Below, in pieces: positions 21,386 to 54,840 of a DNA stretch of 59,677 bases. Made by a program: the position numbers and the translations under genes. The notes beneath the pieces are model-generated. The model did not search any database. It saw nothing but the letters and a program-made list of their open reading frames with translations, and was not told the origin of the DNA. The stretch lies in IMG/VR virus record IMGVR_UViG_3300029581_000014. One strand, 5' to 3'. This stretch comes from a virus. Position 1 is the stretch's first letter, and the number at the start of each line of letters is the position of its first letter.

Positions 21386-21607
21386 ATGAAGTTATCAAAA
21401 CTGACTAAGCCAGAACTTGAAGAAATCTTCCGGAACGCCAATTTCACGGAAGAGGAAGAGAAAGTGTTTTGGGATTTGTCTAAAGGAATTTCTCAAAAAG
21501 AAATATCCTTTAGACATTCCATTTCTGTAACTACTGTAGAAAGAAGAGTAAGGTCTATAAAAAATAAACTTAAGCGGTTAGAAGGTGATAGATTTGGAAC
21601 TTTCTGA
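21386..21607 (+). CDS. Sigma-70 region-4 / LuxR-type HTH small regulator
   Basis: 'EEEKVFWDLSKGISQKEISFRHSISVTTVERRVRSIKNKL' has a region-4-like HTH. Confidence 0.5.
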   Translation: MKLSKLTKPELEEIFRNANFTEEEEKVFWDLSKGISQKEISFRHSISVTTVERRVRSIKNKLKRLEGDRFGTF

Positions 21608-21608
21608 T

Positions 21609-22805
21609 ATGGAAATATTGCAATATGCCGTTAGCAATGGTATGATTGACACGGAATCTTTGCAAAAAAGCATTGAAATGAAAAAGAAAGAGGAGTATCT
21701 GAAGAAACACCAATACGCAATCAACAAAGGCAAAGACGGATACTGGAGAACTTATTTGCCAGATGAAGAAAAAGGAAGGAGACTTGTAAAAAAGAAAAGC
21801 GAGGAAGATATCAAAGAAGAAGTTATTGAGTTTTACTACCAAAAAGAGCAAAATCCAACAGTTACAGAAGTGTTTTACGAATGTGAAGACCGGAGATTGT
21901 CTCTTAAAAAGATATGTAAAGCAACATACGACAGAGACGAGAGATATTTTCTCAGACACTATGGAGAGTTGGGAAAGCGAAGAATAAAATCAATATCAGA
22001 AGATGAATGGGGGGATTTTTTAGAGGAAGAAATTGCCGATAAAGAGTTGACACCTAAATCATTTTCCGGTCTAAAAGGAATTACAAGAACATTTCTTAAA
22101 AGAGCGAAAAAACGCAAACTTATTGATTTTAATATCGTAGAACTGTTTGATAATCTTGACGTATCTGATAGTGATTTTAAAAAAGTAATAAAAGAAGACT
22201 ATGAAGAAGTATTCGACGAATATGAAACTGATGTAATGATTAAGTATCTTGTCAGCCACCTTGATACTTCTAATGTTGCGATATTGCTTATGTTTTTAAC
22301 TGGCGTACGTATCGGAGAAGTTGTAACATTAAGGCATTCCGATTTTTCTGATAATACTTTTAACGTTCGCAGAACGGAGACGAAGTATAAAGATGAAAAC
22401 GGAAACAATGTTGTTGAAGTAAAAGAGTATCCTAAAACCAAGGCAGGAATCAGAACAGCAATTATACCAAGTGATTATGTATGGATTTGCGATAAAATAA
22501 AACACATGAATCCGTTTGGAGATTACATTTTTACAAAAAATGATATTAGGATCACCGCACAGGCGGTTAGACAAAGGCAGAAAAGGCTTTGCAGGAAATT
22601 GAAAATTTATCCAAAGCCACCGCACAAAGTAAGAAAGACATATGGAACTATTCTTATGGATAACAATGTGGATAAGAGACTTGTTATGGATCAGATGGGG
22701 CATACAGATATTATGACATCAGAAATACACTATCATAGGAACAGGAAAACCATTGAAAAGAAATCGTCTATTTTGAGTAGTATACCAGATTTACAGGCAA
22801 GGTGA
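21609..22805 (+). CDS. int: Tyrosine-type site-specific integrase
   Basis: 'LTGVRIGEV' (Arg), 'PHKVRKTYGT' (HxxR), 'GHTDIMTSEIHYHRN' (His..Tyr). ATG lies 2 nt after the previous stop. Confidence 0.85.
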   Translation: MEILQYAVSNGMIDTESLQKSIEMKKKEEYLKKHQYAINKGKDGYWRTYLPDEEKGRRLVKKKSEEDIKEEVIEFYYQKEQNPTVTEVFYECEDRRLSLKKICKATYDRDERYFLRHYGELGKRRIKSISEDEWGDFLEEEIADKELTPKSFSGLKGITRTFLKRAKKRKLIDFNIVELFDNLDVSDSDFKKVIKEDYEEVFDEYETDVMIKYLVSHLDTSNVAILLMFLTGVRIGEVVTLRHSDFSDNTFNVRRTETKYKDENGNNVVEVKEYPKTKAGIRTAIIPSDYVWICDKIKHMNPFGDYIFTKNDIRITAQAVRQRQKRLCRKLKIYPKPPHKVRKTYGTILMDNNVDKRLVMDQMGHTDIMTSEIHYHRNRKTIEKKSSILSSIPDLQAR

Positions 22806-30109: not shown

Positions 30110-30757
30110 TCATCCGGCCAGTTTATTCACCGACTTATTTTCCAAAAATTCCTTAATTTCTCCGTATCCCCAACCGTATCCAACCAGTGAACTTACAAGC
30201 ATTTCTGCATTCTGAACTAACAGTAGTTCTTCCTCAGTCAGATAATCCCGGATGTTTTCTTTGTTGCCAATATTAAGGTCAAGCCGTAATTGCTTTGCGG
30301 TTTTTCCGAATACTGATTTATAAATCAAATCGGTGTAGGTAGAGTATGCATGACCGTGCATCCGTTCATTTTCGGAAGTCCTCTGCAAACTATCCGTAAG
30401 TACCCTGCGGACACCAATTCCTTTTTCACGTTCCCGTATTTTGCCGATAAGAGCCTTTTCCATAGCGTTAAACTGCCGTATATAGGCTTCCTTGAACTGC
30501 ATAGCTTTTTCACCAGTGTATCCCATAGCAAGAAGAGTAAAGCCGTCTCTTGTCATAATAAACATTGGCTGCTTATGCCCTTGCTCATTCACATAATTCG
30601 ACTGCACAAAATTGCGCAGTCGAAATTCTTCACTGCATTTCAAATCACGTATGTCTTGTAACACTCTACGGTGTTCTTTTCCGAACGTTTCCGCAATATC
30701 AAGGCTTGTTACAACGGTTACTTCTTCTTTGTTTACTGTTTTGATTTCAACTAACAT
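30110..30757 (-). CDS. Rha-family phage regulatory protein
   Basis: 'VTSLDIAETFGKEHRRVLQDIRDL...MFIMTRDGFTLLAMGYTGEKAMQFKEAYIRQF' has the Phage_pRha pattern. Confidence 0.75.
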   Translation of the reverse strand: MLVEIKTVNKEEVTVVTSLDIAETFGKEHRRVLQDIRDLKCSEEFRLRNFVQSNYVNEQGHKQPMFIMTRDGFTLLAMGYTGEKAMQFKEAYIRQFNAMEKALIGKIREREKGIGVRRVLTDSLQRTSENERMHGHAYSTYTDLIYKSVFGKTAKQLRLDLNIGNKENIRDYLTEEELLLVQNAEMLVSSLVGYGWGYGEIKEFLENKSVNKLAG

Positions 30758-30979
30758 TTTCTACCTCCAACAAATACATTGTCATGGGGCAGAAGAGCAT
30801 AAAAATAAGCCCACTACCCCTGTTACTGTTGGAGTAGCGAACTTCCAATCTTTTTTTGGTCTGTCTTTATTCCGGGTCTTGGTTACAATCTAGGCTGTCT
30901 AATCAGCTTTCACTCTCCGGACGTGGTGCAAGACTTCCTAACTGACATATATTATACCATGCAGAACGTAGATTCGCAA
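30758..30979 (-). promoter_or_regulatory. Rha-operon promoter (TTGCGA-17-TATAAT, TG-extended) plus 190-nt structured leader ending in an intrinsic terminator (30799..30837). Paralog of the late-operon leader at 35094..35253.
   Basis: Shares CAGTTAGGRAG, GAGTGA, ACAGCC, a 17-nt identity AGATTGTAACCAAGACC (30875-30891) and GACAGACC with the 35.1-kb copy. Confidence 0.55.
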
Positions 30980-31014: not shown

Positions 31015-31638
31015 TCAGTTATCTTGATGCTCGGATAAGTCGTAAATAACTTCATCTGTGTCTTGGTCTACAATTAACACATTGAAGTCTCTGTCTTCAG
31101 GTGGAACTAAATTATATGCTTGAATAGAGTCACTTAATACTCCGCATATAATTGACACGCCAAAAGGAATAAAAGGATTGCCAGCTTCATATTCTTCCTT
31201 GTCTGCATAAAAAGTAAACTCTGAAAAATCATCGTTGTAGTCTACTGATTTTAGAGAAGCATACTGCTCATCAGAAAAAATTTGCTGAAACGTAGAGTTA
31301 AGATTATCTTTGCTTAATATCTCGTCTAATGTAGCTTGTCTCTTTGATTCCTTAATTGTAAGCGTGTAGTGGTCATCATCATATACCTCAACTACGGCAT
31401 CAGGATTTTCTTTTTTATAATCTGCCACATATTGTTCAATCCCTACGTTGTTGAAATCGTAAGCAGACAAGATAATATCAACATCCTTGTCAAAAAGCTG
31501 TGGTGTTTCTGATTCCTCTACTGGTGATACGTTTGGTGTTTCTTGTGGTTTTTGTGTAAGGTCTACGGTGTTCGTCTGTGACCCACAACCGCAGACAAGA
31601 AGTGATAAAGACAGTAGTAATGGAATAATTCGTTTCAT
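31015..31638 (-). CDS. Lipoprotein (207 aa)
   Basis: 'MKRIIPLLLSLSLLVCGCGS' is a signal peptide with a lipobox. Second ATG chosen, 8 nt after ggggga. Confidence 0.7.
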   Translation of the reverse strand: MKRIIPLLLSLSLLVCGCGSQTNTVDLTQKPQETPNVSPVEESETPQLFDKDVDIILSAYDFNNVGIEQYVADYKKENPDAVVEVYDDDHYTLTIKESKRQATLDEILSKDNLNSTFQQIFSDEQYASLKSVDYNDDFSEFTFYADKEEYEAGNPFIPFGVSIICGVLSDSIQAYNLVPPEDRDFNVLIVDQDTDEVIYDLSEHQDN

Positions 31639-31713
31639 AAACATTTCCCCCTATAGGTTTATTAAAAATCTCATTTTTTGAGATCTTTTTCGTAAAAAAT
31701 TTTGTGTCAACCG

Positions 31714-33382: not shown

Positions 33383-33528
33383 ATTTGTTGAGATAACTAT
33401 AACAGATATAAGGCACAAAAGAAAGATGTAATAATATACAAATATAAGGCACAAAATAAGTTCTTTTGTTGTGCAAAATATATAAGGCACAAAAAACATG
33501 ATTATATTATAGTAGATAAAAAATAATA

Positions 33529-33557
33529 TTGACATATAAGGCACAAACAAATATAAT
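33529..33557 (+). promoter_or_regulatory. Promoter TTGACA-17-TATAAT with an iteron in the spacer
   Basis: -35 at 33529-33534 and -10 at 33552-33557. Confidence 0.65.
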
Positions 33558-33794: not shown

Positions 33795-33823
33795 TTGACA
33801 TATAAGGCACAAAATGCTATAGT
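33795..33823 (+). promoter_or_regulatory. Promoter TTGACA-17-TATAGT with an iteron in the spacer
   Basis: -35 at 33795-33800 and -10 at 33818-33823. Confidence 0.6.
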
Positions 33824-33942: not shown

Positions 33943-34395
33943 ATGGCGGAAACATTTAACCAAATGATTAGATTCCCGAAAGACCTAGAACCGCAGATCA
34001 AAGCGCAAGCAGAAAAGAACGGTGAAAGCGTCAACCAGTTTGTTATAGGTGCCGTGATTGCAGCATTGCAACCAGTACAGCCGCAGGCAGTGACAGGACA
34101 ACCGAAAGAAGCACCCGTGACAGGCTCTAAAAGCCCCATAGACGAGAAAATCGCACTCATGCAGGCAAATGAACGGTTACACGCTTTACAAGCCAAAACA
34201 GCGGCAGAAAGAGCCGCTAGAGAGCACGGAGAAGTTGCACCAGTCGTTAAACATCCTCCAAAATGGGCGGGCTTACCCGGACAGCGGCCAGACGAAAGTA
34301 ATGTTGAATGGGTAGAACGCAAGAGGAAAGAAGCGGAAGAAATTTATAAGCAAGGTATGGAACGAATACAAAGAGAAAAGGAGCAGAAAGCATGA
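33943..34395 (+). CDS. RHH (Arc/ParG/omega-like) N-terminal domain protein with a charged tail (150 aa)
   Basis: SD aaaaggaggtg. 'MIRFPKDLEPQIKAQAEKNGESVNQFVIGAV'. GC-richer than the surroundings. Confidence 0.55.
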   Translation: MAETFNQMIRFPKDLEPQIKAQAEKNGESVNQFVIGAVIAALQPVQPQAVTGQPKEAPVTGSKSPIDEKIALMQANERLHALQAKTAAERAAREHGEVAPVVKHPPKWAGLPGQRPDESNVEWVERKRKEAEEIYKQGMERIQREKEQKA

Positions 34396-34694
34396 AAGGA
34401 ACACCAGAGCAGATCACAGCAAAGAAAGCCGCCCGGATCCGGTCAAATGTCCGGCAGTTCTTCCGGTACTACCGGGAGCAACTGGAAAACGTGGAATCCG
34501 AACGGCTGAAAGAATTTAACCGGGCAGAACTCCAAGCACTGGAAGATGTGCAAGCGGAAACACTCCAAGCACTGGAGAGTATGACAGATTTGGAGTTATT
34601 GTCCAGTAAGACCGCATACGGTGACAGGGTATTAATCGACCGGATCACAGCAAGAGCGGAACGGATCAGAAGAACAGAAAGAGCAACAGCATAA
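34392..34694 (+). CDS. Hypothetical protein (100 aa)
   Basis: Track ORF with an ATGA overlap. Confidence 0.55.
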   Translation: MKGTPEQITAKKAARIRSNVRQFFRYYREQLENVESERLKEFNRAELQALEDVQAETLQALESMTDLELLSSKTAYGDRVLIDRITARAERIRRTERATA

Positions 34695-34703
34695 ACAGGA
34701 ATT

Positions 34704-34730
34704 AAGCAGGTGTAAAAGCCTGCTTTTCTT
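34704..34730 (+). terminator. Terminator aagcagg/cctgctt + T-run
   Basis: A 7-bp stem followed by ttttctt. Confidence 0.6.
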
Positions 34731-35093: not shown

Positions 35094-35253
35094 TGGTATG
35101 ATAAAAGCAGTTAGGGAGCCGACGTTAATACGGTGCGAGTGACAGCGGTACAAATCCACCCCCCTCTGGATATACAGCCGCCCAGATTGTAACCAAGACC
35201 ACCGGAGCCGACAGACCGGAAACGATCAGAAGTCACTAGCTGATCACTTTTTT
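35094..35253 (+). promoter_or_regulatory. Late-operon promoter (TG-extended TATGAT, 35094..35102) plus structured leader RNA ending in intrinsic terminator GATCAG/CTGATC + T6 (35224..35253)
   Basis: Paralog of the Rha leader. The closing helix CGGUG (35131-35135) / CACCG (35200-35204) corresponds to UCCGG/CCGGA in the other copy, so the changes are compensatory. Confidence 0.55.
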
Positions 35254-35355
35254 AGATTTATGTTTTACTGATACACGTTGAGGAGATCAAAAAAACATGG
35301 GTTTATTAAGTGACGCCTAGTGATTTTTTATGCAGATTTTTAGGAGGTGCAGAGC

Positions 35356-36027
35356 ATGGAAAAAGTCGAAAACACAGAAACATCCCAGGTATATGAAAAT
35401 GACATGGAATTATACCTATCCCAGTTCTGCAAGGATCAGAAAATCGAGGATATTAGACAAGAGTCTCAAAGCGTCTGGAATGCTGCTCTTATGTATATTA
35501 AACGTCATGCATTTAATGAGCCTGATTGTCTCAAGTCTAAATCCCTTGTAAATACTACTGGATCATTTACAGGTGGAGTTAGTAACTATAACGCTTATAA
35601 CTATGATTTAGTTAACCGTATATGTGATTATTATATATATATGTGTATGATGTATGATAAAGAGGTATCAGCTATAGGATTTAGCTTATTAACAGGTATA
35701 GACAGATATACAATAGCTACATGGAGAGATGAGGGGACTAAATTAAGTCCATCGTGTTCTGACATCGGCAAAAAGATATCGGATTTCCGTGAAGAGTCTT
35801 TAAGCGCAAAACTTGCCACAGCAAAGCGCAACCCTGTAGGGATCCTGGCAATATTAAACCGTCACTACGGTTGGAACCTTCCAGGAGTATCGAGAGAGCA
35901 GCAGAACCACAAGCAAGCGTTGACTGCTTCGGATTTGCCACAGTTAGGCGGCACAAATGGACAAAATACATCAATGTTGACCAATTCCGGAGCGTATGAC
36001 GATAATACATCAGATGCAAATAAGTAG
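35356..36027 (+). CDS. terS: Terminase small subunit
   Basis: ATG 6 nt after aggaggtg. Its position and HTH-like 'IGFSLLTGIDRYTIATWRDEG' support the call. Confidence 0.6.
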   Translation: MEKVENTETSQVYENDMELYLSQFCKDQKIEDIRQESQSVWNAALMYIKRHAFNEPDCLKSKSLVNTTGSFTGGVSNYNAYNYDLVNRICDYYIYMCMMYDKEVSAIGFSLLTGIDRYTIATWRDEGTKLSPSCSDIGKKISDFREESLSAKLATAKRNPVGILAILNRHYGWNLPGVSREQQNHKQALTASDLPQLGGTNGQNTSMLTNSGAYDDNTSDANK

Positions 36028-36714: not shown

Positions 36715-37116
36715 ATGCAGATCTACGGAAAAGAGATTAAAGATGAATGTTCAAAATGTGGTGAAGTGCTGCAATGCGAATTGTTTCTGCAAGGTCACGG
36801 AATTAAGAGAGACCGTGAGAATGTTACGGAAATGGTTAGCTGTCAGATGGAGCACCAAAAGAGCAGGCTTGATAAAGAGCCTAAAAAAGATTTGCCAGTT
36901 AAGGAGAAATGCGAATTGCCACCGGAGATTAAAGAGATTTACACAGAGGTTTGGAAAATTCATAAAGAGTACGCTAATCCGAAAACGGATGATGACTGGT
37001 CGTATCTTATTCGGCAAGGCAATCTGCTGATTAAAATGCACAACAATAGCCAGTTTGCTAAAGCACTGGTAATGGCAATGATAGATGAAATTGAAGGAAG
37101 GACGAAGAAAAAATGA
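36715..37116 (+). CDS. Hypothetical protein (133 aa)
   Basis: Track ORF. Confidence 0.55.
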   Translation: MQIYGKEIKDECSKCGEVLQCELFLQGHGIKRDRENVTEMVSCQMEHQKSRLDKEPKKDLPVKEKCELPPEIKEIYTEVWKIHKEYANPKTDDDWSYLIRQGNLLIKMHNNSQFAKALVMAMIDEIEGRTKKK

Positions 37117-37501: not shown

Positions 37502-37805
37502 CCTATGTGGTTACCGGAGATTATGCGAATTATCCCATATCACAATTTTGAATGGGTTAAATTCATAAAGCCATTGTTATTGCCGAATATCCGGTGTTGT
37601 GTTGGCATTGGATATGTGGCAGAGAAATCAAGGCATCAAGAGTGTATGTAGCCTGTGTGTGGGAAACGAAAAATGAAATAATGCGTTCGACAACACTAAG
37701 TTTTACAGAGTACCGTACACAGGCGTGACAATTTTTTAGATAAAGCAATATAGGGTGTTTCACGAAAAAATAATCCGGGAGCAGATGGTCTCTCTCCCGG
37801 AGTTT

Positions 37806-37876
37806 AGGGCTATCGCCAAGCGGTAAGGCACAGCACTTTGACTGCTGCATCCCAGGTCCGAATCCTGGTAGTCCTG
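37806..37876 (+). tRNA. tRNA-Gln(TTG): tRNA-Gln (anticodon TTG)
   Basis: Hand-folded cloverleaf. Acceptor AGGGCTA/TAGTCCT, anticodon arm CAGCA-CTTTGAC-TGCTG, T-arm CCAGG-TCCGAAT-CCTGG. No encoded CCA. Confidence 0.8.
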
Positions 37877-38289
37877 TTTCGCAGATGTTTTCTTCTTTCG
37901 GTCTTTGCCATCTGCGAATTGTCTTCCATACTTTTCCATTGGAGACACTCCTTTCACCTCATAGCGGAATGCTGTTAAGAGCCGTCGCAAGGCTCGTGAG
38001 GGTTTAACCGGTTTATGATAGCCCGGTTTTTGCGGAATACCGTTGTAGGTTTTAATCCGTGGGTTGTCAGTAAAGACATTAAAATCCTGCACTACCCTTG
38101 CAGACATAAAATGGGTGTAGTCGGACAGAATCGGATTATGTAGGGTGCAACTCCCTACACGACTATGTGTCCGGTTTGCTACCGGATAGAGTGTTGGTGG
38201 CAGAATCCCACTTGAATCAAAAAAATGCCGTAAGTGTTGTTTGGTGTCCGAACCTTAAATGTCGGCAGACAGCTTGCGGAATTGCACAT

Positions 38290-38363
38290 TGTGACGTAGC
38301 GCAAATGGAGAGAGCAACAGTCTTCTAAGCTGTGTGGTATGGGTTCGAGTCCCTTCGTCACAA
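38290..38363 (+). tRNA. tRNA-Arg(TCT): tRNA-Arg (anticodon TCT)
   Basis: Acceptor TGTGACG/CGTCACA, anticodon arm ACAGT-CTTCTAA-GCTGT, T-loop TTCGAGT (one T-stem mismatch). Confidence 0.7.
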
Positions 38364-38521
38364 TGGGTGTTGTTGCAAGTACACTCCGAGTATGCTTATT
38401 ACAGAAGCATAGGGGATAAATACACCGGTTAATGTTTATCTCATGGGAACTTGATGGAGCCGCTTGCGGCTGACTAAAAAATCCTTGGGTGGGAGATAAC
38501 CAAGTAAAAAACCTCCCGACT

Positions 38522-38604
38522 GCAGATATGGTGTAATGGTATCACAGTAGCTTGCTAAGCTATCCAGCAGAAATGCTGTCAAGGTTCAAATCCTTGTATC
38601 TGCG
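38522..38604 (+). tRNA. tRNA-Ser(GCT): tRNA-Ser (anticodon GCT), class II with a long variable arm
   Basis: Acceptor GCAGATA/TATCTGC, anticodon arm GTAGC-TTGCTAA-GCTAT, variable arm CCAGCAGAAATGCTGTC, T-arm CAAGG-TTCAAAT-CCTTG. Confidence 0.75.
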
Positions 38605-38673
38605 TTTATCTTTATCTCCACTTAGTCTGGCACTACTGCAATAGTTCAGGTCGATGGGAGATGTATGGATAGT

Positions 38674-38781
38674 AGTTGCTCATTATCGGTTAACGAAAAA
38701 CACTTCTGTGAGTAGAATTTGCAGATTCAAAAGCAGTCGAGCCTTGTTTGGGTCGGGTGGGTTCGACTCCCACGGCAACTA
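38674..38781 (+). ncRNA. 108-nt tRNA-like element with a canonical T-arm and acceptor stem but no recognisable anticodon arm
   Basis: Acceptor AGTTGCT/GGCAACT (extendable to about 10 bp) and T-arm GTGGG-TTCGACT-CCCAC. The interior does not fold as a standard cloverleaf by hand. Confidence 0.4.
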
Positions 38782-38940
38782 TTCCCTGTCTAAAACGTAA
38801 GCCACATACGATTAGCGAAAACCAAGCCTATGAAGTAGAGAACAGACAAGACTGTGAGATTGTGGATAGTCAGTGACAAGTAGGCGGTGCACATTTGGTT
38901 ATGGCAAGCGCAAGCCATAAAAAGTTTTACGGTGCGATTC

Positions 38941-39013
38941 CCATGTATAGCTTCAGTGGTAGAACAGCATCCGCATAGGATGTGTGCCGGCGGTTCGATT
39001 CCGTCTGCATGGG
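38941..39013 (+). tRNA. tRNA-Met(CAT): tRNA-Met-like (anticodon CAT) with an unusual G33
   Basis: Acceptor CCATGTA/TGCATGG, anticodon arm GCATC-CGCATAG-GATGT, T-arm GGCGG-TTCGATT-CCGTC. Confidence 0.6.
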
Positions 39014-39029
39014 TTACGGAGGATATGAT

Positions 39030-39320
39030 ATGAAACATGAAAAGGAATGGTACACCTGTGATCGGTGTGGATCTGAAATAAAAATGATGCCGGAAAGAAG
39101 AACTTTTTTAACAAGGAAAGTGATTACATCAGCAGAATTTAATATGAGATTTGCAAATGTAACAGGATATGTTGCTGATACTGAACTTATATCTCCGTTA
39201 CTTATGGCAGTTCAAATTAAAGAAATATGCGACGTTGGATACAAAGACTTTCATTTGTGCCCTAAATGTCGGAAAAAGTTTGAGGAGTGGATGAAAAATG
39301 AGTATGACAGCAGTAATTGA
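39030..39320 (+). CDS. Zinc-ribbon protein (96 aa)
   Basis: Internal ATG after acggagga. 'CDRCGSE...CPKCRKK'. Confidence 0.55.
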   Translation: MKHEKEWYTCDRCGSEIKMMPERRTFLTRKVITSAEFNMRFANVTGYVADTELISPLLMAVQIKEICDVGYKDFHLCPKCRKKFEEWMKNEYDSSN

Positions 39321-39594
39321 GAGAATAGAACGTGATGCGTTTCGACAGGTCACACCTAAAAACATCGGTAATATTGAAGATATAAAAATTGAATGTACAA
39401 CACTGGGAGAAGAGCCGATTGTCGTGGCAGATACAAAGGAAGACGAGGAAACTTTGAAAAAATGTTTTTATGTAAAACTGTCCGAACATCGTTGTAGCAA
39501 ATGCAACCGCCTGTTAGGCAAATTCAACGGACAGGCTGAAATCAAATGTCCGAAGTGTGGGAAAATCAATAGAATTGGGGTGAATCGGGAATGA
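39298..39594 (+). CDS. Protein with a C-terminal Com-like zinc ribbon (98 aa)
   Basis: 'RCSKCNRLLGKFNGQAEIKCPKCGKINRI' resembles the Mu Com fold. Confidence 0.5.
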   Translation: MSMTAVIERIERDAFRQVTPKNIGNIEDIKIECTTLGEEPIVVADTKEDEETLKKCFYVKLSEHRCSKCNRLLGKFNGQAEIKCPKCGKINRIGVNRE

Positions 39595-39868: not shown

Positions 39869-41611
39869 TTGGCAAGTCAGAGCCTTATCACGGCAGTAAA
39901 CAGCTATGACAATTACATACAGCGCAAGGGAATTGATGAACAGGTCATTGATGCGTACATAGAAGCCTGTAAGGTGGCAATTAACAGTGAAAAGGATATT
40001 CAGTACGGATTACAACTTACAGAGCGTTCCAAGGGCATTGTAGAACGTTTTTGCATGGATAGGACAGGCGCCTCCATATGGGATTTGGAAAAGTATTCCT
40101 TTGCAAACAAGACGCACTATTCTCTGACAGATAAATTATACGATGTTCTTTTACTAGAAGCACAAAATAAGGTTGTGGACAGTGCATACCGATACTTGGA
40201 AAAGAAAAGAGAACCTAGAGAGCGGTTCTACATGCCACGTAGAAAGCAATTTCTTAAAATCGGTCTAATGGATGCCATTCAAGGCATGATTGATGATAAA
40301 TACGACATTCTCTGCGTGTCACTTATCCCTGGTGCCGGAAAAACTACGGTCGAAAAAATGCTGAATGCATTGGTAGCAGGATGGTTTCCGAGAGATTTCA
40401 ACCTTTTTTACTCCCACAGTGGAGATATTACACGTATGTACTATGACGGTGTGTACGATATTTGCACAAATTCTGACGAGTACACTTGGAATGAAATTTT
40501 CCCAAATCTTTCAGTTACCAGTACTAATGCAAAAATGGAACAGTTTAACATCGGCAAATATAAACCATTTCCATCCGTTCAGTGCACATCCGTAGGAAGT
40601 AAAAATGCTGGTAAAGTACGTGCATCAAAGTTTTTGTTCGTAGATGACATGATCGGTGGCATCGAAGAAGCTATGAATCCTATAATTTTGGATAAACTGT
40701 GGGACAAATATGCTGTAGACGCAAGACAGAGAAAAACACAGGACACGGATGGAAAGAACTGTAAAGAGATTCATATTGCTACTAGGTGGAGCGTAAATGA
40801 TGTAATAGGTCGGATCCAAAATATGTATGAAGGTAATCCGAGAGTAAAGGTTATTTCAGTACCTGATATAGACCCCAAGACAGGATTAAGCAATTTTGAC
40901 TACGAATTTTCCGGATTTACGGTTGCTTTTTTTGAAGATCAACAATTACTCATGGATGAAATCTCTTATAGGTGTCTTTACAAACAGGAGCCTATTGAAC
41001 GTGAGGGATTGTTATTCCCGGAAGAAAAAATCAGACGTTATCTTAATCTGCCACATGGGGAACCGGAAATTATTACAGGGCAATGCGATACCAAGGGAAA
41101 AGGAACAGACTTTTTTGTTCTTCCGGTATTACAAAAGTACGGAGAAGATTATTACTGCGTTGATTGTGTGTGTAACAATACAGCAGATTATGAAATGCAG
41201 TATGAAAATGCGGCAAATGTACTCGTTAATAATAAAGTGCAAGAGTGCGAATTTGAACGTAATGCTGGTGGTGACCGTGTTGCAATGGAAGTAAATAAAC
41301 GTGTAGAAAGTAAAGGCTGGATATGCAATATTACTGATACTCCAACAGAGACAAACAAGGAAGCTAGAATTTTTCAGTGCTCTAACTGGATATTGCAACA
41401 CGTTATTTTCAAGGATCCGTCATTGTATAAGCCTAACGAATCATACGGTGTAATGATGTCGTTACTGAAAAGGTATTCTGTTTCAGGAAAAAAACAGTTA
41501 GATGATGTCCCGGATGTATTTTCTAACTTTGCTTTAAGAATCACAAACGGTAACAGAGTGGCAAGAGCAGAAGCAATCAGCAATCCTTTTTCAATGGGTA
41601 GGAGGTATTAG
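39869..41611 (+). CDS. terL: Terminase large subunit
   Basis: 580 aa. TTG start after ggaaggagg, Walker A-like 'IPGAGKTT', located upstream of the portal gene. Confidence 0.8.
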   Translation: MASQSLITAVNSYDNYIQRKGIDEQVIDAYIEACKVAINSEKDIQYGLQLTERSKGIVERFCMDRTGASIWDLEKYSFANKTHYSLTDKLYDVLLLEAQNKVVDSAYRYLEKKREPRERFYMPRRKQFLKIGLMDAIQGMIDDKYDILCVSLIPGAGKTTVEKMLNALVAGWFPRDFNLFYSHSGDITRMYYDGVYDICTNSDEYTWNEIFPNLSVTSTNAKMEQFNIGKYKPFPSVQCTSVGSKNAGKVRASKFLFVDDMIGGIEEAMNPIILDKLWDKYAVDARQRKTQDTDGKNCKEIHIATRWSVNDVIGRIQNMYEGNPRVKVISVPDIDPKTGLSNFDYEFSGFTVAFFEDQQLLMDEISYRCLYKQEPIEREGLLFPEEKIRRYLNLPHGEPEIITGQCDTKGKGTDFFVLPVLQKYGEDYYCVDCVCNNTADYEMQYENAANVLVNNKVQECEFERNAGGDRVAMEVNKRVESKGWICNITDTPTETNKEARIFQCSNWILQHVIFKDPSLYKPNESYGVMMSLLKRYSVSGKKQLDDVPDVFSNFALRITNGNRVARAEAISNPFSMGRRY

Positions 41612-42049
41612 ATGACAACAAAAGAATATTTAGGGCAGATAAGCCGCCTTAATCGAATGATAAATAATAAACTCACGGAAATTGCACAACTCAAAGATAT
41701 GGCGGTAAGCATATCTGCTCCGCAAAGCGGTGAAAGGGTACAGACTACACCGAATTTTGACAAAATAGGAACAAAATATGCCAAAATTGACGAAATGGAA
41801 CGGAAAATAGATGGCATGGTGGACGAACTTGTCGATAAAAAAGAGAAAATTATACAGCAGATAGACAGCATGGAAGATGAAAACACATACAATATTCTGT
41901 TCGCAAGGTACATCGAAAAGAAAACTTTTGAAGTGATTGCAACAGAAATGAAATATTCATGGAGACAGGTTGTCAGACTTCACGGAACTGCATTGAAACA
42001 GTTTGAAAAGAAATACGGAGAAGGGTATTTGAATGAACAATGTCATTGA
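41612..42049 (+). CDS. DUF1492/sigma-70 region-4-like regulator
   Basis: SD taggaggt. C-terminal 'YNILFARYIEKKTFEVIATEMKYSWRQVVRLHGTALKQF'. Confidence 0.5.
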   Translation: MTTKEYLGQISRLNRMINNKLTEIAQLKDMAVSISAPQSGERVQTTPNFDKIGTKYAKIDEMERKIDGMVDELVDKKEKIIQQIDSMEDENTYNILFARYIEKKTFEVIATEMKYSWRQVVRLHGTALKQFEKKYGEGYLNEQCH

Positions 42050-42395: not shown

Positions 42396-43829
42396 ATGAA
42401 CACTATGAAATTTCAAGACCTTGTAAAGGGTTGTCACGGTAGAAAAATTGCATATACGGACGTGGAGCAGATAACCAAAGACAACATTGTAAAGGTTATT
42501 TGTGATTGCATCGGTGTTTTTAATTACAATAAGTCAGTTATCAAGTACTTGTGGGAGTACTACAAAGGAGATCAACCGGTACTATACAGAACAAAGCTGT
42601 CAAATGAGGATATAACGAACAAAATCGTTGAGAATCATGCTTATGAGTGGGTACAGTTCAAGGTTGGTCAGACTTACGGCGAGCCTATTCAGTTTGTCAG
42701 CAGAAAAGATGATGAAGCTGTAAATAAGGCAGTAGATGAACTTAACGATTACTTAGCTGATGCAAATAAGCATGAGAAAGACATAAAAGCTGGTGAATGG
42801 CAGTCGGCAACCGGAACATCATTTAAAGCAATTCAGATTGTGAATGGAGATGTTCCTATCCGTGTGGTTGCACCTAATCCACTAAATACATTCGTCATTT
42901 ACAACCGTAGTTCTGAAGAACCGATTTTAGCAGTCCAAGAATTAAAGGATGAAAACGGAGAATGGTATAAACTTTGCTACACAGAAACGAATGAATGCAA
43001 AATAAAAAACAGTTCTGTTATTGCTGATTCATGGAAGTTACATGGTTTTGGAGGCATTCCTATTGTGGAATTTCCGAACAACCATGAGCGATTGTCTGAT
43101 ATTGAACTTGTTATAGATCTGTTGGATGCAATCAATAATACACAGTCAAACAGAATGGACGGCATAGAGCAGTTTATACAGGCATGGATCAAATTTGTAA
43201 ACTGCGATATTGACGAAGAGCAGTTTGAAAAAATGAAAATGAGCCATGCATTGGTTGTAAAGTCCAATAACAAGGATAACAAGGCTGATGTTGATGTAAT
43301 GTCGCAGGAACTTGACCAAACGCAGACACAGGTATCTAAAGACGATTTAACAGACAGCGCACTTTCAATTTTGGGAATACCAAACAAACAAGGAAACACT
43401 GGCGGTGATACGCAGGGTGCGGTTGAGCTGAGAAACGGATGGGATTTTTCAAAATCAAGAGCAAGGCTTAAGGATCCGGTTGTTAAGACAGCAGAGAAGA
43501 GACTGGCCAAGGTTGCGTTGAATGTTATCCGCATTAAAAAAGAGGATCTAAAAATCACTCTTAGAGATTTTGATGTGCAGATCAACCACAGTCCACAAGA
43601 TAATATGTATACCAAGTCGCAGACATTACTGCAACTTCTGCAGTGTGGTATTCATCCGCTTATTGCAATTAAAACGGTTGGACTTTGGGGAGATTGCGAA
43701 AAGACTTTCAACCTTTCCAAGCCCTACCTTGATGCTCTGTGGAAAACCGCTGACATTATCAACATGGAAGAGCAGATGGCAAAAGCACAAGAAATTGTAA
43801 AACAAATGCAAAATAAGACAGTTGCCTAG
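42396..43829 (+). CDS. Portal protein (SPP1 gp6-like)
   Basis: 477 aa, located after terL. 'YYKGDQPVLYR...ENHAYEWVQFKVGQTYGEPIQF'. Confidence 0.75.
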   Translation: MNTMKFQDLVKGCHGRKIAYTDVEQITKDNIVKVICDCIGVFNYNKSVIKYLWEYYKGDQPVLYRTKLSNEDITNKIVENHAYEWVQFKVGQTYGEPIQFVSRKDDEAVNKAVDELNDYLADANKHEKDIKAGEWQSATGTSFKAIQIVNGDVPIRVVAPNPLNTFVIYNRSSEEPILAVQELKDENGEWYKLCYTETNECKIKNSSVIADSWKLHGFGGIPIVEFPNNHERLSDIELVIDLLDAINNTQSNRMDGIEQFIQAWIKFVNCDIDEEQFEKMKMSHALVVKSNNKDNKADVDVMSQELDQTQTQVSKDDLTDSALSILGIPNKQGNTGGDTQGAVELRNGWDFSKSRARLKDPVVKTAEKRLAKVALNVIRIKKEDLKITLRDFDVQINHSPQDNMYTKSQTLLQLLQCGIHPLIAIKTVGLWGDCEKTFNLSKPYLDALWKTADIINMEEQMAKAQEIVKQMQNKTVA

Positions 43830-43848
43830 AAATAGGTAGCTGTTTTTA
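43818..43848 (+). terminator. Intrinsic terminator overlapping the portal stop (acagttgccta/taggtagctgt + T5)
   Basis: An 11-bp stem with two G-T pairs. Confidence 0.6.
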
Positions 43849-48577: not shown

Positions 48578-48602
48578 TAGAGCCATTCGGCTCTATTTTT
48601 TT
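48578..48602 (+). terminator. Intrinsic terminator (tagagcc/ggctcta + T7)
   Basis: A 7-bp stem, 4-nt loop and T7. Confidence 0.7.
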
Positions 48603-50955: not shown

Positions 50956-50961
50956 TTTTAG

Positions 50962-50995
50962 GAGCGGTAGGTGTCACAGCTTACCGCTCTTTTTC
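50962..50995 (+). terminator. Intrinsic terminator (gagcggta/taccgctc + T-run)
   Basis: An 8-bp stem followed by tttttc. Confidence 0.7.
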
Positions 50996-50997
50996 TT

Positions 50998-51023
50998 GGA
51001 AGTGACAGACACTTCCTTTTTTT
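50998..51023 (+). terminator. Second intrinsic terminator (ggaagtg/cacttcc + T7)
   Basis: A 7-bp stem followed by T7, 22 nt before the tape measure gene. Confidence 0.7.
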
Positions 51024-54801: not shown

Positions 54802-54805
54802 CACG

Positions 54806-54840
54806 GACAGCACTCTGAAAATGGGTGCTGTCTATTTTTA
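54806..54840 (+). terminator. Intrinsic terminator (gacagcac/gtgctgtc + tattttta)
   Basis: An 8-bp stem. Confidence 0.6.

Follow-up and report, generated by a model that had tools for sequence, protein, structure and literature searches.

Two copies of a candidate transcription attenuator ahead of an anti-repressor-type gene and a packaging and structural operon in a temperate phage genome

Late gene control in phage lambda relies on the promoter PR', the 6S leader, the terminator tR' and the protein Q, which recognises DNA at the promoter together with a sigma-dependent pause and needs no RNA fold. Anti-repressors of phages P22 and P1/P7 are controlled by trans-acting or antisense RNAs, sar and c4, respectively, and pseudoknotted riboswitches such as those for ZTP and fluoride turn transcription on. 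The nut sites combine boxA with a 15-nucleotide (nt) hairpin, and the put sites, of about 70 nt, fold into two stem-loops and bind RNA polymerase; both systems are processive and neither overlaps a terminator (PMC2800207; PMC9378689). In cATTpLS20, the zipper-type attenuator of pLS20 among Gram-positive conjugative plasmids, a zipped extension forms the antiterminator, which is the default, and a separate downstream hairpin is the terminator (PMC13401043). Here we analyze an element that occurs twice in a 59,677-nt stretch of viral DNA (IMG/VR record IMGVR_UViG_3300029581_000014; the whole stretch is hereafter called the window): copy A on the minus strand (30979-30799), ahead of a Rha-family gene, and copy B on the plus strand (~35094-35329), ahead of a packaging and structural operon. 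We lean towards reading both copies as cis-acting transcription attenuators that are off by default and need an effector for read-through.

An initial annotation of the window had described copy A as a second copy of a leader module located at 35.1 kilobases (kb). The two copies align block by block from the -35 region on, and the 16-mer AGATTGTAACCAAGAC occurs exactly twice in the window, once in each. A covariance model covering both types (R1) scored the two copies at 153.6 and 110.2 bits in an exhaustive scan, the next best site of the window reaching 13.1, and a model that adds the third hairpin (R2) scored them at 168.1 and 110.6 bits. With scores far beyond chance and a 16-mer found at two sites only, copies A and B are confirmed as paralogous promoter-plus-leader modules. 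As with the put sites of HK022, two nascent-RNA copies stand behind promoters: both start about 7 nt past the -10 element, in divergent units. The leader measures about 150 nt in copy A and about 220 nt in copy B.

The promoter, leader pairings and hairpin with U run earlier assigned to copy A are all in place. The promoter (30951-30979, minus strand) directly follows the terminator of the upstream gene (31011-30986) and consists of a -35 element TTGCGA (30979-30974), a 17-nt spacer and an extended -10 element TGgTATAAT (TATAAT at 30956-30951, TG at 30959-30958); a consensus scan reports it too. The leader starts near 30946, and its 5' segment (30922-30946) opens with CAGUUAGGAAG, a block conserved in copy B. 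In the sensor domain (30871-30921), the stem P1, UCCGG/CCGGA (30921-30917 with 30875-30871), encloses the stem P2, GCUG/CAGC (30907-30904 with 30897-30894). The two strands between them are J1/2, AGAGUGAAA, and J2/1, CUAGAUUGUAACCAAGAC (30893-30876), the 16-mer AGAUUGUAACCAAGAC occupying 30891-30876. Next come a conserved linker block, GACAGACC (30858-30865), and the hairpin P3 (30829-30848), a candidate antiterminator with stem UUGGA/UCCAA and loop AGUUCGCUAC. The intrinsic terminator (30799-30841) is composed of UUCGCUACUCC (30841-30831), a 10-nt loop and GGGGUAGUGGG (30820-30810), a stem of 11-14 base pairs (bp) followed by CUUAUUUUUAU, which ends at 30799. Behind it (30110-30768, minus strand) lie a Shine-Dalgarno (SD) sequence, GGAGG at 30768-30764, and, at 30757-30110, the gene for a Rha-family protein, which matches Pfam Phage_pRha (E value 1.4e-33) and PHROG families of Rha-like and anti-repressor proteins; a terminator follows the gene at 30104-30084. 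A leader placed between its own promoter and the Rha-family gene and equipped with an intrinsic terminator fits the cis control that had been proposed for it.

Copy B (plus strand) has an extended -10 element TGgTATGAT (35094-35102) and a poor -35 element, TTGTAG, 21 nt upstream. Both promoters look like ordinary housekeeping promoters with an extended -10, from which we infer that control is exerted after initiation. The 5' block CAGUUAGGGAG, the sensor domain and the linker span 35107-35223, with P1 at 35131-35135 and 35200-35204, J1/2 reading CGAGUGACA, P2 at 35145-35148 and 35178-35181, a P2 extension (35154-35158 with 35167-35171) bearing a C-rich loop, the 16-mer inside J2/1 (35184-35199) and GACAGACC at 35210-35217. 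P3 (35224-35245) has the stem GAUCAG/CUGAUC and the loop AAGUCACUAG. It is overlapped by a long imperfect terminator hairpin (35228-35329) in which AGAAGUCACUAG pairs at the base with CUAGUGAUUUUU (35317-35328); the terminator base, GUCACUAG/CUAGUGAU, is followed by six U, the U run covering 35324-35329. The first gene of the rightward operon (35342-36027), with SD sequence AGGAGG at 35342-35347, is an open reading frame (ORF) of 223 codons (35356-36027) that encodes a probable small terminase. The protein shows a weak match to the P22 gp3 packaging family (E value 0.0044), a Pfam domain carried by one homologue, and contains a helix-turn-helix-like segment and a NPVGILAILNRHYGW segment, which we take to be typical of small terminases; for its predicted structure (predicted local distance difference test, pLDDT, 68), the top phage fold match, 2ao9, reached an E value of only 0.56.

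The sensor domain combines changing stems with unchanging junctions. Its internal-loop strands GAGUGAMA and CYAGAUUGUAACCAAGAC are common to A and B, and the unpaired junctions GAGUGA (6 nt) and AGAUUGUAACCAAGAC (16 nt) are identical in both, while four of the five P1 pairs differ between the copies, each difference being compensated. Covariation was measured on a model-based alignment of 122 instances (77 distinct), with controls in which the 3' partners were slid by 1-3 columns. All five P1 pairs show double changes (CG63/UA12, GC63/CG14, GC65/CG12, UA63/GC14 and GC75/AU2), nearly all P1 pair differences separating A types from B types; four further pairs with double changes lie in P2 and its extension, and another four in P3. 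Double changes thus affect 13 of the 26 counted pairs, versus 0-7 in the slid controls, with 93.6% paired cells versus 25-44% and a covariation score of 0.224 versus 0.02-0.06. A conserved sensor with covarying stems and conserved junctions, as present here, is a general feature of riboswitches.

Two unpaired positions of the sensor also vary together, namely the base after the P1 5' arm and a U within the 16-mer (30916/30885 in copy A; 35136/35192 in copy B). Whenever the first is U, the second is C (10 of 10 cases), and this combination is seen separately among A-type and among B-type sequences; it may reflect a non-canonical contact.

The stem and junction pattern bears directly on whether anything is sensed. 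The element could be a duplicated promoter-terminator cassette, or a DNA site such as an operator, an activator-binding or a packaging site, whose RNA fold is incidental. The duplicated block does take in the promoter from about -40, the conserved 5' block sets in where transcription starts and might belong to a DNA site, and roughly half of the clade does without copy A. We nevertheless consider this explanation very improbable: substitutions between A and B concentrate in stems, where they are compensated, junctions are identical over 6 and 16 nt, and P3 stems covary among near-identical phages; the stem and junction pattern is not expected of neutral divergence or of a double-stranded DNA site. 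The initial annotation had named what would refute it: a recent duplication without structural constraint, with a single copy and no covariation in related phages. Many close relatives indeed carry copy B only, but covariation is strong, and the compensated stem differences together with the identical junctions exclude a recent neutral duplication.

Downstream of the sensor, both copies carry a mutually exclusive terminator/antiterminator platform of the kind found in riboswitches generally. P3 is in both a small hairpin after the linker with a conserved 10-nt loop. Its stem reads GACAAG/CUUGUC (n = 104), GAUCAG/CUGAUC (n = 64), GGCAGG/CCUGCC in locus L208, GGUAGG/CCUAUC in L204 and UUGGA/UCCAA in A, so that compensated changes occur among otherwise near-identical phages as well as between paralogs. 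In copy A, the terminator 5' arm (30841-30831) is made of P3 loop nucleotides 3-10 and the first three bases of the P3 3' arm; in copy B, the 5' arm of the long hairpin (from 35228) reuses the P3 loop and P3 3' arm. This overlap makes P3 and the terminator mutually exclusive. Computed energies are -2.8 kcal/mol for P3 and -13.5 to -19.5 for the terminator in copy A, and -6.4 kcal/mol for P3 and -35.4 for the long hairpin in copy B; with the terminator so much stronger, termination is predicted as the default state of both copies. Each terminator is of the intrinsic (Rho-independent) type, a G+C-containing hairpin followed by a U run, and both were missed by a consensus terminator scanner because their loops exceed 8 nt. 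Nearly every cell of the copy B long hairpin is paired across 26 distinct sequences, with one double change (U-A to C-G in L208) and many wobble-keeping changes.

The initial annotation had placed the structural alternative elsewhere, in a pairing of GGGGUAG with CUGCCCC just before the SD sequence of the Rha-family gene. The pairing exists, and its complementarity survives in most variants, as judged by inspection rather than computed. As a switch it does not hold: lying 3' of the U run, it cannot decide termination, and the competitor of the terminator is the upstream P3. Three further candidates in copy B were rejected. GAUCAG/CUGAUC with its U run is not a terminator, since the U run shrinks in relatives (UUUUUU, UUUU or UU) and the stretch is the 5' arm of the long hairpin; many relatives have lost the ATG of a leader peptide, MGLLSDA, that could be encoded between P3 and the gene; and a 5' antiterminator pairing of CAGUUAG with CUAGCUG has no equivalent in copies A and L204.

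Sensor and platform may also touch directly. A candidate pseudoknot would join J1/2 AGUGAM to P3 loop nucleotides 3-8, where 6 of 6 positions can pair both in A (loop 30841-30836 with AGUGAA 30914-30909) and in B (loop 35232-35237 with AGUGAC 35138-35143); from A to B, an A-U pair is replaced by C-G and a U-G pair by U-A. This pseudoknot, weakly supported by one compensated difference between paralogs, would sequester the remainder of the terminator 5' arm.

On the attenuator reading, the nascent leader would fold into the sensor domain, P1 enclosing P2, and then into P3. Unaided, the terminator would win, and RNA polymerase would reach neither the anti-repressor-type gene behind copy A nor the packaging and structural operon behind copy B. 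Read-through would call for an effector able to keep sensor and P3 in their joint fold, which may be assisted by the 6-bp pseudoknot between J1/2 and the P3 loop. As the sensor nucleotides are the same in A and B, one effector would switch both units together.

The platform also separates this reading from processive antitermination, in which the leader RNA, alone as in HK022 put or with a phage protein as in lambda N-nut and conAn, would stay on the polymerase and make it resist leader and operon terminators. The two copies sit just downstream of promoters in divergent units, as do putL/putR and nutL/nutR; a terminator lies after the Rha gene (30104-30084), and some conserved single-stranded blocks are not accounted for by an attenuator. 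We regard this mechanism as quite unlikely, however. The P3 loop and 3' arm are reused by the terminators of both paralogs, which are otherwise unrelated, and this points to a structural switch; it would be surprising if an RNA that had to stay on the polymerase were dismantled at the first terminator it meets. Relatives of N, Q or ConAn1 did not turn up, apart from a weak Q-like match of the product of 41612-42049 (E value 0.004), and inspection of the leaders disclosed no boxB-like short hairpin beside a boxA-like sequence, no search being aimed at boxA, boxB or N.

Several observations weigh against the attenuator reading. The rightward operon contains at least five strong-looking intergenic terminator-like hairpins on the plus strand (43815-43846, 48578-48595, 50960-50991, 50998-51016 and 54805-54833), which would favour a processive mechanism; against that mechanism, the late operon as a whole has no more terminator-like sites than shuffled sequence does (14 versus 13.5). 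The covariation reflects few independent lineages, namely one paralog split and a handful of variants, so that shuffle statistics overstate its significance. Copy A rows are out of register for P3 and the pseudoknot in the model alignment, and both features rest on separate register-aware counts. The terminal pairs of the pseudoknot are mismatched in L208, in L118 and in the L101-type copies, and the divergent L204 lacks the partner sequence. Neither the conserved 5' block CAGUUAGGRAG nor GACAGACC has a role in the attenuator model. The U89C variant is not common to the A and B copies of one genome, giving no sign of co-adaptation to a common partner. Finally, the only gene exclusive to this leader type among the loci compared, p100 (34392-34694), was rejected as the effector: two alleles that are 40% identical occur beside the same leader.

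Used by itself, the 16-mer recovered over 100 related viral contigs, most of them 50-60 kb long and from the human gut, with 10 distinct A-type and 61 distinct B-type sequences. We surveyed the clade through 41 loci centred on large terminases that are 96-98% identical. Copy B, with 36 complete matches and one truncated match, is present wherever the upstream region is available and heads the probable-small-terminase operon across the clade; of the 23 loci that extend far enough upstream, 13 have copy A. Independent assemblies show the same two states, L293 having A and B, and L294, L295, L208 and L209 having B only. Behind leader A lie two Rha-type variants and several proteins starting MKMNELEVF or MNELEVF; three different anti-repressor-type N-termini are joined to the leader. 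In L293, the gene behind it (210 codons) is labelled Bro-N by its gene calls and is taken to be of the MKMNELEVF/MNELEVF type. That the same element precedes both a lysogeny-side regulator and the late operon, as had been claimed, is true of both positions in the window, and the first partner turns out to be broader than Rha: with Rha-type or Bro-N-type genes behind it in relatives, leader A is tied to anti-repressor-like genes generally. Copy A is thus an optional module associated with anti-repressor-type genes, and copy B is fixed.

Sister phages carry other leaders at the terminase position. At least three further structured leaders, each conserved, closed by a terminator and possessing a covarying P1, are seen there (L165-L203, for example L189, upstream of the terminase-like gene; L123 13440-13640; L206 9830-9985); none of them is picked up by the models or resembles an Rfam family by eye. 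In the sister clade, whose large terminase is 85% identical and whose terminase-like gene is only 34-58% identical, a strong promoter ahead of that gene is followed by a different conserved leader starting GCAUYCGGG-CAAC, with its own covarying P1 and its own long terminator. Dulem virus 39, the nearest deposited phage (82% identical large terminase), also has a different leader, and together with a Faecalicatena prophage it provides two further leader types. Models R1 and R2 found no match in the sister-clade leaders and the Faecalicatena prophage leader, and R1 found none in Dulem virus 39; by eye, GGAAACG and GAAGUC are common to type B and some of these other leaders. L204 and L210 carry a significant but divergent family member (29.6 bits with R2), which keeps the 5' block, P1, P2, linker, P3 loop and long terminator, without UGAMA and the central 11 nt of the 16-mer. 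In the sister phages, in L204 and L206 and in Dulem virus 39, the other leader types showed no duplicate within 10 kb.

Outside this phage group, searches were negative. Rfam 15 detected transfer RNAs (tRNAs) only in the whole window at gathering score, and nothing relevant in 501-base regions around copies A and B at E values up to 10. Queried with copy A in a sensitive nucleotide search, the phage collection of GenBank gave no match; a scan of 185,579 representative genomes for the sensor core returned only chance coding matches and no instance; and scans of IMG/VR and Joint Genome Institute (JGI) metagenomes for other P1 variants returned only unrelated, apparently coding sequence, mostly from contigs with giant-virus-like names. 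In the literature searched by sequence and topic, the element is not described; a large survey of RNA motifs from the human microbiome includes one unnamed candidate close to Rha genes, for which comparison with the element was not possible. As an effector-dependent transcription attenuator, the element would be unusual in its duplication ahead of an anti-repressor gene and in the apparent exchange of sensors among sister phages.

This distribution tells against a small-molecule riboswitch, in which the P1-P2 internal loop and the P3 pseudoknot would form an aptamer and a ligand would stabilise P3, turning on anti-repressor and late genes and linking induction to host physiology. The architecture is typical of pseudoknotted transcriptional ON riboswitches, in that junctions are identical between diverged paralogs, stems covary, P2 varies in length and the terminator overlaps the distal hairpin; control of an anti-repressor in a lysogen, moreover, needs a signal that precedes lytic gene expression. 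Yet riboswitches recur across diverse organisms beside ligand-related genes, whereas this element is confined to one phage lineage, with no instance in representative bacterial genomes, no other P1 variant in viral and metagenome scans and no association with metabolic genes. Unrelated domains replace the sensor in phages with 82-85% identical large terminases, and in L204 the expression platform has been kept although the UGAMA segment and 11 nt of the 16-mer are gone. We hold the riboswitch to be unlikely, and find it decidedly doubtful that the sensor acts as an aptamer for a second messenger or a small molecule of host origin, gating prophage induction and licensing late genes.

We consider a phage-lineage-specific protein or RNA a more likely effector of the attenuator than a metabolite. 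Such a macromolecule is favoured by the confinement of the element to one lineage, the exchange of sensors between close relatives and the tolerance of L204 to conserved-loop loss, and the pattern recalls the specificity modules of lambdoid phages. None of the candidate regulators considered (21386, which is the integrase; 41612; Rha; and the phage genes compared) could be tied to the RNA. Two genes, 36715-37116 and 38982-39320, track the distribution of type 1 and type 1b. The gene 41612-42049, directly after the large terminase, encodes a 145-residue protein matching PHROG 36, annotated as a transcriptional regulator (E value 4e-22), and weakly matching Pfam DUF1492; it may be a late-gene regulator in an unusual position, and its similarity does not track leader type.

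The window is a temperate siphovirus-like genome with an integrase (21585-22805) and a cytosine methylase. Copy A closes the leftward genes, and copy B opens a rightward operon of about 24 kb in the order probable small terminase, large terminase (39869-41611, by family-profile matches), portal and structural genes; a terminator of the preceding unit before each copy (31011-30986 and 34704-34725) insulates units A and B. The ORF of 477 codons at 42396-43829 is the counterpart of a gene annotated as an SPP1-type portal in relatives, and the plus-strand ORFs after it probably encode structural proteins, judging from position and the annotation of relatives. Near copy B, the length of the C run in the P2-extension loop (35159-35164) ranges from about 5 to 10 residues in relatives that are nearly identical elsewhere, and L208 and L204 retain a C-rich loop on a different stem; the variation could be hypervariability, an assembly artefact or a functional loop. 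At 35331-35351, an invariant UGCA/UGCA pairing could enclose the SD sequence of the terminase-like gene and may add translational control to read-through transcripts. In L208 (713-916) and L209 (8579-8782), a small gene with a match to Pfam AcrIC5 (anti-CRISPR) lies between the p100 homologue and leader B.

Between copies A and B, strong, divergent near-consensus promoters standing back to back (33506-33557, TTGACA-17-TATAAT on both strands, and 33795-33823, TTGACA-17-TATAGT with a preceding TG) adjoin an Arc/HicB-like gene (33943-34395); the region is probably the genetic switch. Upstream of copy A, the minus-strand gene 31015-31644 encodes an acidic protein of 209 residues without a family match, whose N-terminus resembles a lipoprotein signal (MFMKRIIPLLLSLSLLVCGCGS) and which may be a prophage-encoded surface or exclusion protein. 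Within the rightward operon, four tRNA genes (Gln-TTG, Arg-TCT, Ser-GCT and Met-CAT; 37805-39014) lie between the terminase-like gene and the large terminase. Just upstream of the latter, 39298-39594 encodes a 98-residue protein whose C-terminal zinc ribbon resembles the one in Mu Com (Pfam E value 1.4e-6) and which has a PHROG match annotated as a translational regulator; Mu Com is an RNA-binding translational activator. A homologue of the 223-residue terminase-like protein in an assembly of Faecalicatena acetigenes suggests that the hosts of this phage group are Lachnospiraceae.

Lysis-lysogeny and late-gene control are almost unexplored in temperate phages of gut Clostridia, and the element provides a testable RNA switch through which a single input would govern both an anti-repressor-type gene and the packaging and structural operon. 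Phages of this group are common: more than 590 stretches of IMG/VR matched in a first scan based on the terminase, and the terminase-like protein falls into clusters with hundreds of members. The different sensors of related phages on a platform that looks similar by eye suggest a modular specificity like that of N-nut and Q-qut, but based on RNA structure and in Firmicutes. Knowing the effector would reveal either a new antitermination factor family or the signal by which induction is triggered. Were the aptamer reading true, a riboswitch would directly gate prophage induction in abundant human-gut Lachnospiraceae phages, and the sister leaders would be alternative sensors for other signals.

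Set beside the known systems, the element shares with P22 sar and P1/P7 c4 the control of a temperate-phage anti-repressor gene at the RNA level; unlike in those systems, the 16-mer has no complementary partner within the window at up to three mismatches. Like the ZTP and fluoride riboswitches, it has a 5' subdomain and a distal hairpin connected by a linker and a possible pseudoknot, with the terminator 5' arm overlapping the distal element; it differs from them in lacking any sequence or model match, in being confined to a single phage lineage and in the weak support for its pseudoknot. With nutL/nutR and putL/putR it has in common two diverged nascent-RNA copies with compensated stems behind two promoters of opposite operons, but it is larger, folds differently and has a built-in terminator/antiterminator alternative.

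The cATTpLS20 element resembles copy B in having a weak stem-loop followed by a long imperfect hairpin able to zip further by invading it, and with conAn it shares the gating of a long operon in a Firmicutes mobile element (PMC13401043; PMC8191782); no conAn genes were identified here, where no targeted search was made. The polarity is opposite: the zipped hairpin of copy B ends in a U run and is the terminator rather than the antiterminator, P3 takes the antiterminator role and the predicted default is off; copy A, for its part, is without the long apex hairpin. The lambda PR'-tR' region under Q is similar in its apparently constitutive promoter, in a leader (here 150-220 nt) with a strong terminator before the late operon, in the phage-specific input for read-through and in a module that differs between related phages. 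In contrast to lambda, the stems of the present element covary, an RNA hairpin competes with the terminator and a second copy stands ahead of an anti-repressor-type gene.

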